Shown: positions 20,621 to 26,534 of the stretch, piece by piece
Numbering within the stretch: position 1 is the first letter of the stretch
Layout: every line of letters starts with the position of its first letter
IMG/VR virus record: IMGVR_UViG_3300022748_000017
Span: 1 to 64,000 of that record
Length of the DNA stretch: 64,000 bases
Strand: one strand, 5' to 3'
Source: a virus
Position numbers and translations under genes: made by a program
Notes under the pieces: model-generated
Databases searched by the model: none
Seen by the model: the letters and a program-made list of their open reading frames with translations, nothing else
What the model was told of the DNA's origin: nothing

Positions 20621-22018
20621 TCAAGTCTTCCCGATATTCATTTTCTTGGTCTGATTTCCACCACCACCGCCTGTATCCTGCTTACTGCTGCCGGGAGTTG
20701 GTTCGGCTGCTTTGGCATCTTTGACCAGTTCATCAGCACCTTCTTTGTTCGCCATGCCCATGTATTCACGGGCTTCGTTCGGTGTCATGATGCCATTAGT
20801 CACGCCAGCGGTGACAAAGTTCATCTGATCCAAAGGCGCACCTTTCAGGAAGTCCTTGGTGTCAAATTCGATGCTCAGAGATGGATAGCCGGGGAACAAG
20901 TGATCGGCAAGTTTCTCTTGCGCGTTCACAATGACCGGATACATAGCCGATTTATAAAACTCGTCCATTGCAGTCTGGCTGTTATTGAATTTGCCGTCAT
21001 GGATGCCAATCATGGAAGGTGGTACGCCAAACAGACCGCAGATTCGGCGCATTGTCTGGAGTTTCAGGGCAGCAGCATCAGCATCTTGGAGCGTCAGCAT
21101 CTCCAACTTCTGGTACTTCATGCCTTGGTCCAGCAACATGCCTTGACCGGGCTTGGATGGATCAGATTGGCGAGAACCAACCATGTTGCTCCAAGCCTCT
21201 TTCAGACGAGCAGCAATCTCCTTGTACTTGCCATCAGGAATGACCGTATCTGTCACAAACATGCCAGAAGGTTTTGCACCATTTTGCATGACGTAGTTGG
21301 CATACAGGTCGATGTCCTGATCCAAGCCACACAGTTCAGCCATCAACACGCCTTTGTTGAAGCCAGCCGAACCTTGCCATGCCATCTCTTTGCAGTGCAT
21401 GACCTGATGCGCTTTCAGAGGCTGGTCTTTGCTGAAACCATAGGAAGGAGTCGAAAGACGATAGCTCGGATAGCGGGTAGGTGTAATCGTGACTGCAATC
21501 AAAGTTGAGTCAAGAATGTACATCTCCAAAGGAGTCTGAGTCGAACTCTCTTGGTCTTTCCTCCACCACAGAGTAAAGGCTTCGCCAGACAGTTCGTACC
21601 ACATCAGCCATTGATACCAGAACTCATAGCGAGACTGGAAATTGTTTGGCTTGTTCAGGAGCTTGGCAACTTGCTTGGCTTTCGTCTTGTCACGATCACC
21701 AACAATCTTGCTTTTGACAGCATCAACGTAATCGCCTTCCTCTGTCTCGTACATGACACGGATAGGCAACTGCGCCAAAGCCCGAGCTTTAATCGCCACA
21801 CAGGACATGATCGTGCTGTTTCGAGCCAGCATCGACATATCCACAGGCCGACCAGCATTGGTCGTGCTTGCTGTGGTTACATACAGGATTTGGGTATTAA
21901 CTGTCGGGTTTTTGTTGTCGCCTTGATAAACAATGTTGTTACCAAGAGCCGTCTGACCGAACATTGAGTTCGATTCATCAACCTGTTTTTTACCCTTGAA
22001 AATGTCCAAAAGTCCCAT
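20621..22018 (-). CDS. Portal protein, HK97 family
   Basis: PNNFQS, NGAKPSG, ICGLFGVPP, MTPNEAR. Confidence 0.95.
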   Translation of the reverse strand: MGLLDIFKGKKQVDESNSMFGQTALGNNIVYQGDNKNPTVNTQILYVTTASTTNAGRPVDMSMLARNSTIMSCVAIKARALAQLPIRVMYETEEGDYVDAVKSKIVGDRDKTKAKQVAKLLNKPNNFQSRYEFWYQWLMWYELSGEAFTLWWRKDQESSTQTPLEMYILDSTLIAVTITPTRYPSYRLSTPSYGFSKDQPLKAHQVMHCKEMAWQGSAGFNKGVLMAELCGLDQDIDLYANYVMQNGAKPSGMFVTDTVIPDGKYKEIAARLKEAWSNMVGSRQSDPSKPGQGMLLDQGMKYQKLEMLTLQDADAAALKLQTMRRICGLFGVPPSMIGIHDGKFNNSQTAMDEFYKSAMYPVIVNAQEKLADHLFPGYPSLSIEFDTKDFLKGAPLDQMNFVTAGVTNGIMTPNEAREYMGMANKEGADELVKDAKAAEPTPGSSKQDTGGGGGNQTKKMNIGKT

Positions 22019-22042: not shown

Positions 22043-23722
22043 TTACCATTCAAATGAACGGAATCCAAATGAATCGCTCACAAATACGTTATCCAAATGG
22101 CAGTGCATCGCCATAATCATGGCAATAATACCGTCAACTTTGGCAGATGGGTCTGCTTCGTTCTTTCTGACCTTCACGTTTCCGTTGACATCAATGTAAA
22201 CCTCGCAATTTCCTAGCTGCCAACCAACAAAAGGATTGCCATCATGCTTAATGGCTTTCTTCAGAATCAATTGCTCGGTTGTTTTAGACGGGTTTGATAG
22301 AACCGCCATACCCTGACCGACCTTTTTAACAGGTAAACCGTCAGCATAAAGATTGGCGACAAGAGCCGCAGCGTTATAGGGATCGTATCCAATTTCTTTG
22401 ACTTCATATTTCTCACACTGTTGCTTGATGAACGATTCAATCTCATTCAAGTCAGTCACGTTACCCGGTGTGAGCCTCAAAATGCCACTTTTGTGAGCCT
22501 GTTGGTAGATAGACTTGTAATGGTTCGGCACAAAATCCAATGACTCCTCTGGCAAGAAGAATTGGAACTGCGAATAGAAATCTTCTTCGCCATATCGGTG
22601 CAAAGTAACGACAGCGTTTAAATCTCGCGTGTGCGCCAAGTCAAAACCGATAAATGTTGACTCAGGTTTATCCTGTGGTTTTTCAGCAACAGACTCATCC
22701 CAGAAGCGCCTGTCAACCCATGCGGCATTGGCAGACACATAGATGTTCAATTGTTTGCACAGGAACTCATTCAGGCTGGCTGGCTTGGCAGATGCCTCTT
22801 CAGCCATGTGCTTGATGTGTTCTTTGGTAACTGACACACCTAGCATAGGATTGGCTTTGCCCCAAACTTCAGGATTGCTCCATTCGTCACCGGGGTCGAT
22901 GCTGTACAGCAGTCCAAACCACCTGAAATTGTCAGCAGCAGCACCACGCAAAACCGACCGGAAATGGTTCAAATCCTCGTAGAACTTTGTCTCTTTGGTA
23001 AAGCTGGCAGTGGTCAAATACATCCGCAATGGATTCTTACGAGCGCCCATACCAGAGTGCAACACTTCAATACTGGACCGCTCCACAATCTGGGCAGCTT
23101 CGTCAATCATCGCGACACTAGGGTTTTTACCATCACCGGTTTTTCTGTTCTCACGGGACAGGGCGCGGTAAGTAGAAGTCGAGTCGCCAGCCTTCTTTAG
23201 CTCACTGCGGTAAACAATAAACTTAGCCGCCAGTTCTGCCTTCATGCCTTCGACAATAGCTTTAGACGAATCAAAGCAAATAGACGCTTGGTCACGGTTG
23301 GTAGCCAGAGTAAACACCTCCGCGCCAGCATCGCCAAATTGCAACTCATAAAGCGCAATAATGGACGCTATAGTGGTTTTCCCTGATTTGCGTGGAACAA
23401 ACAAAATGACATCGGTTGTCCACCGAGTGTTCACATCGTTCTTAGCGCGAAAGCCATATATGCCAGCCAGAAACATAATCTGGAACGGCTCAAGCTCAAT
23501 TGCTTTGCCAGCATCTGGACCTTTGACATGTCGGCAGAACCTGACAAACTTCAAAATGTGTTCGGCTTTGTCAGCCACAAATTCGTAGGGCGCATCCTTG
23601 CGTTCAGCCATGTCAAGGAATCGCTGGCAAGCCAGTTTGACATCCTCACACGCTGCTATATCCCCACGAACTACACTAATGGCGTATTGAAACGCTGATT
23701 CAAGCTGTGGCGAATAACTCAT
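22043..23722 (-). CDS. terL: Terminase large subunit
   Basis: Walker A PRKSGKT, Walker B IDEA, KANP, GFDLA, KVDG. Confidence 0.95.
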   Translation of the reverse strand: MSYSPQLESAFQYAISVVRGDIAACEDVKLACQRFLDMAERKDAPYEFVADKAEHILKFVRFCRHVKGPDAGKAIELEPFQIMFLAGIYGFRAKNDVNTRWTTDVILFVPRKSGKTTIASIIALYELQFGDAGAEVFTLATNRDQASICFDSSKAIVEGMKAELAAKFIVYRSELKKAGDSTSTYRALSRENRKTGDGKNPSVAMIDEAAQIVERSSIEVLHSGMGARKNPLRMYLTTASFTKETKFYEDLNHFRSVLRGAAADNFRWFGLLYSIDPGDEWSNPEVWGKANPMLGVSVTKEHIKHMAEEASAKPASLNEFLCKQLNIYVSANAAWVDRRFWDESVAEKPQDKPESTFIGFDLAHTRDLNAVVTLHRYGEEDFYSQFQFFLPEESLDFVPNHYKSIYQQAHKSGILRLTPGNVTDLNEIESFIKQQCEKYEVKEIGYDPYNAAALVANLYADGLPVKKVGQGMAVLSNPSKTTEQLILKKAIKHDGNPFVGWQLGNCEVYIDVNGNVKVRKNEADPSAKVDGIIAMIMAMHCHLDNVFVSDSFGFRSFEW

Positions 23723-24071
23723 CTACATCACTTACTTTGGCTTTTAACTTTGGACGACCACGGGCAACCAGCCCAAGCTCCGCAAGAATCTTCACAGCCT
23801 TGTCAGCCATCTCAGTCCGAATCTTGTACCACGGTCCTGTGGCTTCACCAGAGTTGTAATGGAATGTATGCCCTTGCTCACGGATGTTGATTTCGGCAGT
23901 CAGCAAGCTGTCCACAGTAATCACCAATGTGCCAATCAGCAGTTCATCGGATGCCGTGAGTGCGCCAGTCGAGCTTTCAACTTCTGCGCGAATAGCAGTC
24001 TCGAACGCTTCCCTGCTCCATGAGTTGGGGTCGTTCAAGTAGCCAAGAATGTGACGAGGTTTTTTTGCCAT
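23700..24071 (-). CDS. terS: Terminase small subunit (P27-like)
   Basis: Upstream of terL; PWY...ELGL..R motif. Confidence 0.75.
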   Translation of the reverse strand: MAKKPRHILGYLNDPNSWSREAFETAIRAEVESSTGALTASDELLIGTLVITVDSLLTAEINIREQGHTFHYNSGEATGPWYKIRTEMADKAVKILAELGLVARGRPKLKAKVSDVDELFATA

Positions 24072-24092: not shown

Positions 24093-24836
24093 TTAACTTA
24101 ATAATTTCCATGCTGTTGCAGCACAAAGTGGGACTTGTCCATTACCAATGGCTCTAAGTCTGTCCACCCCAGCGGCCACCCCATCAACCATTCGACCCAC
24201 ACCGGGTTCAGCTTCCCACCATTGTTTTGCTCCATATCCCGAACTGCTTGATTGATGGTGTACTGAGCCGGATGTCCCGACTTTCTTTTGGGAGTCCAAT
24301 TCGGTTGTGTTCCACGTTGACCGCAACTCGCATCTGGCGTTGGGAACTTTTGCAACAATCCAGATTCTGTCCCTCTGATGGTTTGCTCCAACGTCCGCTG
24401 CTCCCAGCACTCCCCATTTCGCATCAAACCCCATTGCGGCCAAGTCTCCGAGAACGGTTCCAAGTCCCCTAGAAGTGAGCATTGGTGAGTTCTCCACAAA
24501 GACGAATCTGGGTCCCACTTCGTGAATGACCCGTGCCATTTCTCGCCACATTCCGGAACGTTCTCCATCAATTCCTGCGCCTTTTCCTGACGCTGAAATA
24601 TCTTGGCATGGAAAGCCTCCCGATACGACATCAACAATTCCTCGCCACGGTTTTCCGTCAAAGGTTTGTACGTCATCCCAGATTGGGAAAGGCGGGAGAA
24701 GTCCGTCATTTTGTCGGGCGCACAATACGCTTGCGGGATAGGGTTCCCATTCAACAGCGCAGACTGTTCGCCATCCAAGGAGTTTTCCCCCAAGTATTCC
24801 TCCACCAGCACCTGCGAAAAGAGCCAACTCATTCAT
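24093..24836 (-). CDS. C5-cytosine DNA methyltransferase, alpha chain (motifs I-VIII and X)
   Basis: LFAGAGG, GGFPCQ, VENS, QRDRIW, RLRAIGNGQV. Confidence 0.9.
   Translation of the reverse strand: MNELALFAGAGGGILGGKLLGWRTVCAVEWEPYPASVLCARQNDGLLPPFPIWDDVQTFDGKPWRGIVDVVSGGFPCQDISASGKGAGIDGERSGMWREMARVIHEVGPRFVFVENSPMLTSRGLGTVLGDLAAMGFDAKWGVLGAADVGANHQRDRIWIVAKVPNARCELRSTWNTTELDSQKKVGTSGSVHHQSSSSGYGAKQWWEAEPGVGRMVDGVAAGVDRLRAIGNGQVPLCAATAWKLLS
24098..24832 (-). CDS. Overlapping alternative-frame methyltransferase beta chain (TRD-like segment plus motif IX)
   Basis: 244-codon ORF nested in the MTase gene; PTPDAS and LNPVWVEWLMGWPLGWT resemble motif IX, which the alpha chain lacks. Confidence 0.75.
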   Translation of the reverse strand: MSWLFSQVLVEEYLGENSLDGEQSALLNGNPIPQAYCAPDKMTDFSRLSQSGMTYKPLTENRGEELLMSYREAFHAKIFQRQEKAQELMENVPECGEKWHGSFTKWDPDSSLWRTHQCSLLGDLEPFSETWPQWGLMRNGECWEQRTLEQTIRGTESGLLQKFPTPDASCGQRGTQPNWTPKRKSGHPAQYTINQAVRDMEQNNGGKLNPVWVEWLMGWPLGWTDLEPLVMDKSHFVLQQHGNY

Positions 24837-25093
24837 ATCCTTCCTTGTCTTGTTTTTGGCAAGCGTAACACAACCGAACCGGTTCGTACACCCCCTGCTG
24901 AATTACGGTTATCCCGTAATTGACCCCGCGCCTGCTCCTAGCCCAAATTGTGTACTTTAAGTTTCTTTTCCGTGGGTTTTGCATGGATGGAGTCACGAAT
25001 CGAGCCTATTGGCGCTCGATTCCATCATTTTTAGGTGCGAATCGAATAGAAATGAGAAACAAAAGGGCTACAGACTGACAAGATGCGCCGTTT

Positions 25094-25516
25094 TTACCGG
25101 GCCAACATGAGAAACGCATAGTCTTGCGCGGTGTATTCGTTCGCTTTGTCGGTGTAATGGATGAATACCCCGCGTTTTTCTAGCGCTGACTTGATCCCAT
25201 GGCATTCAGCATCCAGACTCTGAAACAAATTGCGGGTGAAGGCGTGAACGCCAATTGTTTGCCACGGGAATACATGGTCTACATGGTTAGCCGCTGTGAC
25301 TTGTCCCCGCAATAAGCATGATTGACAAAGAGGCTGAATGGATAACTGCCGCTGTCTTATGCTTTCCCATGCGGCAGTTTTATATCTAGCATTGAACGCT
25401 TTACGGTCTATCGTGGGCGCTTTGCTTTGCGTGTGTGCTTCACAGTAGCGAGACCCCTTCACGCTAGGGGCTTTGCATTGGTATTCGTCACACTGTGCGC
25501 GGGGGATTGTGGGCAT
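25094..25516 (-). CDS. Packaging-associated HNH endonuclease (HK97 gp74-like)
   Basis: YCEAH, W..IR..QL..QPLCQSC, VDHVFP, NLFQSL..CH; located upstream of terS. Confidence 0.85.
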   Translation of the reverse strand: MPTIPRAQCDEYQCKAPSVKGSRYCEAHTQSKAPTIDRKAFNARYKTAAWESIRQRQLSIQPLCQSCLLRGQVTAANHVDHVFPWQTIGVHAFTRNLFQSLDAECHGIKSALEKRGVFIHYTDKANEYTAQDYAFLMLAR

Positions 25517-25722: not shown

Positions 25723-25869
25723 ATGCAAACACTTTTGGGCTTTTGGTGCTTTCAATGCCCCTCTGTTTACATTACGCGCACCGTAATGGTCACTTATGCG
25801 GACGATGGTTACGGGGTGTTGATCCCGTCACCGTTTCCCGCCCATGCAATCAACACCGCAAACCAATAA
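25723..25869 (+). CDS. Small hypothetical protein (48 aa)
   Basis: AAGGA RBS; MQTLLGFWCF... Confidence 0.5.
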   Translation: MQTLLGFWCFQCPSVYITRTVMVTYADDGYGVLIPSPFPAHAINTANQ

Positions 25870-25879
25870 GAGATACACC

Positions 25880-26008
25880 ATGCACCATCACACACAAACA
25901 ATCGCAGACATTGAACGCGAGCAAGCCCCCGGCCTTTGGTCAATCCTTGGCGGGGCTTTCCTTTTCTTGGCCTTTGTCTTGGCAATGGCTTTTATTCTTT
26001 CAATCTAA
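25880..26008 (+). CDS. Small single-TM membrane protein (42 aa)
   Basis: GAGA RBS; hydrophobic C-terminal half. Confidence 0.55.
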   Translation: MHHHTQTIADIEREQAPGLWSILGGAFLFLAFVLAMAFILSI

Positions 26009-26018
26009 GGGGCTAACC

Positions 26019-26534
26019 ATGAAACAAATACGCGATTTCTCAGACTGCATCGCAAAAATTGTGCTTAACAAAAAAGGCGAACACGTTGCCACGGTTCAAT
26101 GGCGCTATGGCTCAGGCGGCGGGGTGCAATGTGACGTATGGTCACGCAAAGTCGGAGAATCTTGGCTTTCTCTTACTCACCAGAAAAAGGCCGGGGGCTA
26201 TGGTTATGACAAAGCCGCCGCCGCCCTTGCCGGGGCTGAAATTGAGGGCTACCGCATGGCGGATCATTGCGGCTATGTTGAAGCCGCCGGGGAAAAGAAA
26301 CGCGCCGCCCTTTTGAAAGCATACAAACGCCGCGCAAATTCCGGCTTGCCAATGTCCCGCGAGGATCATGCCGCATTTGAGAAAAAGGCCGAAAAAATTG
26401 GATGCCGCTTTGCTAATTGGGGGGCGGTCTGTCTTGCTGAAGGCGGCGAATCCAGTGCATGGCAAAGCCTTCACAATGAAAGCGGTTTAGGCCGCCTTGA
26501 AATGCTTGGTTTTCGCGTTATCAATGCAATTTAA
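26019..26534 (+). CDS. Hypothetical early protein (171 aa)
   Basis: AAGGGG RBS before MKQIRD; AGGYGYDK motif. Confidence 0.7.
   Translation: MKQIRDFSDCIAKIVLNKKGEHVATVQWRYGSGGGVQCDVWSRKVGESWLSLTHQKKAGGYGYDKAAAALAGAEIEGYRMADHCGYVEAAGEKKRAALLKAYKRRANSGLPMSREDHAAFEKKAEKIGCRFANWGAVCLAEGGESSAWQSLHNESGLGRLEMLGFRVINAI

Follow-up and report, generated by a model that had tools for sequence, protein, structure and literature searches.

Two reading frames that overlap almost from end to end on the minus strand of the window most probably encode the two chains, alpha and beta, of a single phage orphan DNA cytosine-C5 methyltransferase, whose parts are interleaved between both frames. The window is a stretch of 64,000 nt and forms part of an IMG/VR virus genome of 75,987 bp which is rated 100% complete. 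We estimate the probability of this reading at about 0.72. What was observed directly are the two ORFs with their motifs and conservation, together with the selection that acts on each frame; translation, assembly, activity, target and role of the enzyme are inferred. The features of the locus and of its neighborhood are the following.

25094..25516, minus strand: HNH endonuclease gene (phrog_144, E 7e-20), upstream of alpha and beta
24839..24846, minus strand: shared Shine-Dalgarno sequence AAGGAAGG, spaced 2 nt from the alpha ATG and 6 nt from that of beta (coordinates checked by translation)
24093..24836 (744 nt), minus strand: alpha ORF encoding 247 aa (stop codon included in the coordinates); motifs I-VIII are followed by a linker and motif X
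24098..24832, minus strand: beta ORF encoding 244 aa (stop codon likewise included), read in the +1 frame; a leader is followed by a recognition module and motif IX
24798-24818, minus strand: alpha motif I (FAGAGGG), within the region of alpha-frame selection at 24357..24818
24603-24611, minus strand: alpha motif IV (PCQ), from the alpha-frame translation
24483-24494, minus strand: alpha motif VI (ENSP), from the alpha-frame translation
24357-24377, minus strand: alpha motif VIII (QRDRIWI), from the alpha-frame translation
24129-24146, minus strand: alpha motif X (GNGQVP), from the alpha-frame translation
24096..24148, minus strand: alpha motif X and C-terminal helix IGNGQVPLCAATAWKLLS, again under alpha-frame selection; the same DNA encodes the short tail of beta
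24365..24832, minus strand: beta leader, residues 1-156, stop-free, with the start and the first ~12 codons fixed at alpha-synonymous sites
24221..24364, minus strand: beta recognition module 'A', FPTPDASCGQRGTQPNWTPKRKSGHPAQYTINQAVRD..., recognized by beta-frame entropy; the alpha linker derives from the same DNA
24149..24220, minus strand: beta motif IX, GGKLNPVWVEWLMGWPLGWTDLEP, overlapping alpha WEAEPGVGRMVDGVAAGVDRLRAI; the third positions of beta are the most variable
23700..24071, minus strand: terS, terminase small subunit (PF05119, phrog_83), 21 nt downstream of the alpha stop
22043-23722, minus strand: terL, in the same minus-strand block
20621-22018, minus strand: portal gene, in the same minus-strand block

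Both start codons lie within ATGAATGAG at 24836-24828 (minus strand), which contains the ATG of alpha at 24836 and, 4 nt further, the ATG of beta at 24832. A comparison of ribosome binding sites revealed purine-rich sites at the equivalent position in related loci. The beta ORF is located entirely within the alpha ORF and the overlap amounts to 735 of the 744 nt. The GC content at the locus is ~0.5, so that the long second frame cannot be regarded as a high-GC artefact. A preliminary description of this DNA had proposed two starts 4 nt apart behind one ribosome binding site, ORFs of 247 and 244 codons overlapping by 735 nt and a position next to terS; coordinates and translation confirm all of this, and terS, identified by PF05119, is the gene directly downstream.

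The genes of the minus-strand block are arranged in the order HNH endonuclease, alpha/beta, terS, terL and portal. HNH genes of this type are of the kind found beside terminase genes, and here the gene is taken as context only and not as a part of the enzyme. No restriction enzyme gene was recognized adjoining the alpha/beta gene, which is therefore counted as an orphan methyltransferase. Scans for promoters and terminators around it yielded no more matches than shuffled controls. Upstream of the HNH gene and on the opposite strand, an ORF of 263 aa (25743-26534, plus strand) has no PHROG match.

The alpha chain represents the catalytic half of a C5 methyltransferase. Its residues 4-184 match PF00145 (profile positions 4-181 of 324, E 3.4e-29, 102.7 bits with a cut-off of 22), residues 1-244 match phrog_363, a 'DNA methyltransferase', and the profile of the alpha alignment aligned residues 16-174 of M.HhaI, comprising motifs I-VIII, with an E-value of 3.6e-16. 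Motifs I (FxGxG), IV (PCQ), VI (ENV-like) and VIII (QxRxR) are all found on this one chain, and motif IX is absent from the translation of frame 1. The parts of a C5 methyltransferase are hence not all on one chain, as the recognition module and motif IX are confined to the +1 frame. Between motifs VIII and X (24219-24350) alpha consists of a hypervariable linker of low complexity which cannot be aligned among relatives; neither the alignment nor the entropy revealed a conserved sequence in this stretch that would be able to recognize a target. The catalytic part of alpha is 85-93% identical across loci with unrelated recognition regions. AlphaFold2 models, both based on shallow alignments, reached a pLDDT of 37 for beta alone and 46 for alpha; since a value as low as 46 was obtained even for alpha, undoubtedly a folded domain, neither of the single-chain models is informative.

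The translation of beta includes FPTPDAS... as well as KLNPVWVEWLMGWPLGWT, the latter fitting the motif IX pattern, which can be written for beta as KLNPxWVEWLMGWPxGW. Motif IX, LNPVWVEWLMGWP, is present in the +1 frame only and its DNA is nearly invariant across distant loci. Beta matches phrog_1008, likewise a 'DNA methyltransferase' (E 8e-26). A Pfam search with beta yielded nothing, even at E<=10, and its C-terminal part also remained without a match; a PDB search with the beta profile found nothing significant (best E 0.01, an uncharacterized protein), and the ESM Atlas contained no entry for the window beta or a homologue. The assignment of the C-terminal part of beta as the small domain of the enzyme is thus a prediction that rests only on motif IX and on the comparison with phage DrYang described below. 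The distribution of the motifs, with I, IV, VI, VIII and X but not IX in frame 1 and the PTPDAS... module together with motif IX in frame 2, had been anticipated and agrees with the motif translations, the PF00145 match, the beta translation and the selection in the beta frame. The same applies to the proposal that ~24200-24350 encodes the specificity region in frame 2 and a mere linker in frame 1, which is supported by the entropy over 24221-24364.

With a single module, the window beta has the minimal architecture A ('-A'). Longer relatives of beta contain 2-5 tandem xPTPxA modules of ~30-45 residues each (five, counted by eye, in the longest). Within a set of 138 betas, 1-4 modules were found which fall into ~50 sequence clusters and occur in many combinations (A, AB, HA, AD, AEB, JAB); 105 of these relatives have 2-4 modules. 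Such a mosaic of modules on a near-constant alpha would fit an easily swapped specificity, although this function is untested.

A different layout is present in the Arthrobacter phage DrYang (L092, genes 77 and 78). Its alpha ends after motif VIII and has a helical insert of ~70 aa, and the ORF in the second frame carries at least eight xPTPxA modules together with motifs IX and X in one frame. Within alpha, the open frame of this ORF extends ~260 nt further upstream than the annotated start. A Pfam search with the beta-like protein of DrYang gave no match. By its arrangement, DrYang connects modules of the beta type, and with them the LNPxFVEWMMG pattern, with the C-terminal portion of a C5 methyltransferase.

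The phage under study contains a second two-frame C5 methyltransferase, located outside the window (G000:C1 ~69736-70720, minus strand; L090 1484-2476). The beta chain of this copy, beta2, comprises 272 aa, is 57% identical to the window beta and has different modules (ASPNARDW..., WPTPRTKGMCGG...), and the catalytic part of its alpha is 85% identical to that of the window alpha. In the second copy the beta ATG is located upstream of the alpha ATG. It adjoins not terS but an ORF of 267 aa which closely resembles neighbors of the methyltransferase genes in two other loci (L001 and L002).

To estimate how readily the second frame stays open by chance, the synonymous codons of alpha were permuted, a conservative procedure by which protein and codon usage are kept. 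At the window locus, beta codons 1-155 remained open in 1.9% of these shuffles, and the median probability of an open beta leader was 0.018 per locus. In the reverse shuffle, alpha stayed open through the recognition region in 1.25% (0.0125) per locus. Multiplied over nine diverged lineages the probability is ~1e-16; the loci are related, so that their independence is overstated, but we nevertheless consider the value decisive.

Nucleotide entropy allowed us to assign selection to the individual frames. Over beta residues 1-156 the third positions of alpha are the most variable, i.e., the alpha frame is selected; over residues 157-228, which comprise the module and motif IX, the third positions of beta are the most variable and the beta frame is selected; and over residues 229-244 the pattern returns to that of a selected alpha frame. 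For module A, based on 10 distinct loci, the entropy at beta codon positions 1/2/3 is 0.22/0.19/1.06 and the amino acid entropy is 0.31 bits in beta versus 1.22 in alpha. The two frames thus mostly take turns under selection, rather than being jointly constrained. This does not hold for the first ~12 codons or for the junction of motif IX and pre-motif X, where the DNA is nearly invariant even in distant phages.

The start codon of beta is always ATG, whereas alpha starts at ATG, GTG or TTG and often has the weaker start of the two; some loci have TTA at the position of the alpha start and an in-frame ATG 9-18 nt upstream. The alpha-synonymous choices by which the beta start is fixed are AAT, GAG, YTG and TTC in 63 of 63 loci each and GCT in 62 of 63. 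For the leader as a whole, the identity of beta residues 1-156 in saturated pairs equals the prediction from alpha constraint and stop avoidance (Vibrio phage: 0.34 observed vs. 0.32 simulated). Four-fold sites which are unable to create beta stops are less variable at beta residues 1-12, 37-60, and 97-144 (p 0.02-0.04, small n) than in the regions chosen for comparison, residues 13-36 and 61-96. Residues ~61-96 are open without any detectable constraint of their own and residues ~100-156 are weakly constrained. Residues 103-143 resemble the second-frame protein of DrYang, partly where the alphas show no visible resemblance. The view that the whole leader is unconstrained was softened by the four-fold-site test and by this resemblance. 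No role beyond presumed translation has been demonstrated for ~100 residues of beta, and in our reading the first ~100 are mainly a translated spacer that must stay open, with the functional core of beta starting near residue 100-115.

Openness of both frames in homologues had been named beforehand as a check, and the relatives meet it to a large extent. In ~70 of 80 IMG/VR loci (beta 49-82% identical) both frames are open end to end, where an open alpha is one that extends from a start 4 nt upstream to within ~20 nt of the beta stop; the lengths of the two ORFs change in parallel, from 244 to 326 codons. Of the 12 GenBank phages examined, 11 are free of stops in either frame from the 5' end onward. 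These comprise phages of Salmonella, Klebsiella, Acinetobacter, Pseudomonas (two), Vibrio, Ralstonia, and Microcystis and an uncultured Manatee Spring phage. The exception is the Sulfitobacter phage phiGT1, in which the second frame is open only from ~40 codons after the alpha start.

The family is large. A word-indexed search with beta identified 6,493 clusters (90% identity) at E<=0.001, the best 120 of which are for the most part of full length (244-380 aa), show 55-83% identity and almost all lack a name. When the beta profile was compared with 1.84 billion cluster representatives (50% identity), 21,859 were found at E<=1e-3 and 2,634 at E<=1e-30, and most of the family matches listed start at residue 1. 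Annotators have called alpha in some records and beta, as a 'hypothetical protein', in others, but never both. The expectation that gene callers would miss one chain is therefore met, with a single frame annotated per GenBank record.

The question of where beta begins leaves some room for a second possibility, namely that there are two chains, but that beta is made from an internal start near the module, e.g., at Met137, the upstream frame and the ATG at 24832 having some other cause or none. In distant pairs no separate constraint is apparent on the middle of the leader, the beta frame of phiGT1 opens only ~40 codons past the alpha start, and the beta-like gene of DrYang overlaps only the 3' part of alpha, all of which would be compatible with such a start. 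We nevertheless regard it as unlikely. At sites synonymous in alpha, 63 loci agree in the beta ATG and in the five codons after it (one codon in 62 of 63), and the leader is free of stops in lineages whose synonymous sites are saturated, with the combined probability of ~1e-16 given above for related loci. Moreover, Met137 is a by-product of an Asp-Ala pair in alpha, and gene callers let beta begin at residue 1 in most of the listed family members.

It is less probable still that beta is a protein of separate function, such as a regulator, an anti-defence factor or a DNA-binding accessory protein, and that alpha alone acts as a weakly specific or non-specific methylase. The absence of binding evidence and of any database domain in beta would leave room for such a role. 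However, beta has the very motif IX pattern that is missing from alpha, DrYang combines beta-type modules with motifs IX and X in one frame, and the stretch of alpha between motifs VIII and X has no conserved sequence for target recognition.

Similarly improbable, if not slightly more so, is the synthesis of one polypeptide by two programmed frameshifts, where the ribosome would translate alpha, move to +1 after motif VIII and return by -1 into motif X. The order of the selected segments, alpha-beta-alpha, would then give the canonical succession of motifs I-VIII, recognition domain, IX, and X, and only ~5 nt separate the end of motif IX from the start of motif X. A search across loci, however, detected neither a slippery sequence nor a homopolymer that is conserved at one of the two switch points, and the window gene lacks runs of >=6 identical bases. 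The best candidate found elsewhere, CTTAAAG, reads CTTAGAG in the window and is different again in distant loci. Furthermore, frameshifting needs neither a beta ATG nor an open leader of 156 codons nor an open alpha across recognition regions of 60-150 codons, and all three are maintained. Finally, the possibility that frame 2 is a non-functional by-product of the alpha sequence and its codon usage has in its favor that alpha explains much of the conservation of the beta leader. It is effectively refuted by the synonymous shuffles (~0.02 per locus) and by the purifying selection in the beta frame over module and motif IX; lengths that vary in parallel without closing either frame and a pseudogene copy in E. 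coli, where one stop position interrupts the two frames alike, also argue against it.

There is precedent for functional C5 methyltransferases made of two chains. M.EcoHK31I from E. coli HK31 (YGGCCR; Lee, Kam and Shaw, 1995) requires two polypeptides, of which beta is encoded in another frame within the alpha gene; its alpha contains motifs I-VIII, motif X and the recognition domain and its beta motif IX only (PMC2836561, PMC3404938). The window beta likewise lies in an alternative frame inside the alpha gene and carries motif IX. In contrast to M.EcoHK31I, the recognition domain is found on beta, with nothing but a linker at this point in the window alpha. The two ORFs share the entire length of the gene (735 of 744 nt), their starts lie 4 nt from each other after a single ribosome binding site, and the gene is a phage orphan with a family of >20,000 clusters. 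The preliminary description had seen in the locus a phage orphan version of M.EcoHK31I with end-to-end dual coding. The orphan state and the whole-gene overlap stand, but the likeness does not extend to the recognition domain, which is on beta here and not on alpha. Nor is it a lone version, given the family of >20,000 protein clusters and the second copy in the same phage.

M.AquI (CYCGRG; Karreman and de Waard, 1990) consists of two subunits, the C5 methyltransferase being divided within the variable region; the larger subunit comprises motifs I-VIII and a part of the variable region, the smaller one the remainder and motifs IX-X (PMC3404938). A two-chain enzyme is what we infer for the window as well. 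Here, however, motif X is back in the alpha frame and not together with motif IX, and a split like that of M.AquI (I-VIII / IX and X) is found in the relative from DrYang. Genes embedded out of frame and missed by gene callers that penalize overlaps are also known from Rz/Rz1 and phiX174 (PMC11445585, PMC8227390). The second gene of the window is embedded and missed in the same way. Those overlaps are shorter or concern proteins of separate function, whereas the window combines near-full-length, complementary halves of one enzyme fold, with selection alternating between the frames along the DNA. In the literature, the coverage of which was incomplete, we found no earlier account of phage C5 methyltransferases that are encoded in two frames over the whole gene.

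The multispecific enzymes of Bacillus phages are orphan methyltransferases with a constant catalytic core and tandem, exchangeable modules of ~40 residues, all within a single polypeptide and one frame. The relatives of the window beta with their many module combinations resemble them in architecture. They differ in the use of two frames rather than a single chain and frame, and the window beta has one module instead of at least two. The Bacillus phages in question, SPR, phi3T, and rho11s, are reportedly treated by Trautner et al. in 1996 (cited in PMC12707154).

On the reading that we prefer, with two chains and beta starting at 24832, ribosomes bound at the single Shine-Dalgarno sequence would begin translation either at the ATG of alpha or, 4 nt further on, at that of beta. 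Alpha would form the AdoMet-binding, catalytic large domain with motifs I-VIII, would read the DNA of the recognition module in the 'wrong' frame as a meaningless linker and would then close with motif X, a part of the large domain. Beta would begin with a leader of ~100-150 residues, the sequence of which is largely dictated by alpha, and would contribute the small domain, consisting of one xPTPxA target-recognition module and motif IX. We infer that the chains come together as a normal bilobed C5 methyltransferase in which beta sets the specificity, and relatives would exchange and stack recognition modules on an almost constant alpha. Because the gene lies between those for the HNH endonuclease and terS, the enzyme is probably made late and may methylate the phage DNA around packaging, protecting it from host restriction; this, too, is an inference.

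One may go further and see in the family a C5 counterpart of a 'specificity subunit', i.e., a near-invariant alpha served by betas with shuffled modules. Obligatory co-initiation through a largely sequence-free leader might then set the subunit ratio or bring the nascent chains together, and phages with two copies could mix alphas and betas and thereby widen the range of protected sites. We offer this as a tentative idea, possible but on balance doubtful.

If both chains are made and assemble, the gene would belong to the longest and most widespread examples of same-strand dual coding in cellular or phage DNA, with an extent of ~245 codons and >20,000 protein clusters. Its logic is unusual in that selection alternates between the frames and a part of one protein is seemingly a translated spacer. 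Phage annotation lists a 'DNA cytosine methyltransferase' without a recognition domain, or a 'hypothetical protein'. As a consequence of this single-frame annotation, specificity predictions and surveys of phage anti-restriction misread thousands of genes. A modular beta on a constant alpha would, if true, be a natural scaffold for retargeting C5 methylation.

Further observations concern damaged or unstable copies. In one IMG/VR locus (L044, 3300043414_001027) alpha stops after 107 codons and beta is open for 284 codons, which could be due to either a decaying copy or a sequencing error. The prophage copy of E. coli PCP07014 (L091, NZ_CM129871.1, 2951116-2951877) has one stop that hits the same place in both frames and is labeled by PGAP as a pseudogene with 'internal stop'; a match at the DNA level was present in only 4 of 5,426 complete E. 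coli genomes. Some relatives have long homopolymers inside the two-frame gene, such as G11 at position 248 of L005 and C13 at position 502 of L061, and slippage in these tracts would shift both frames together.
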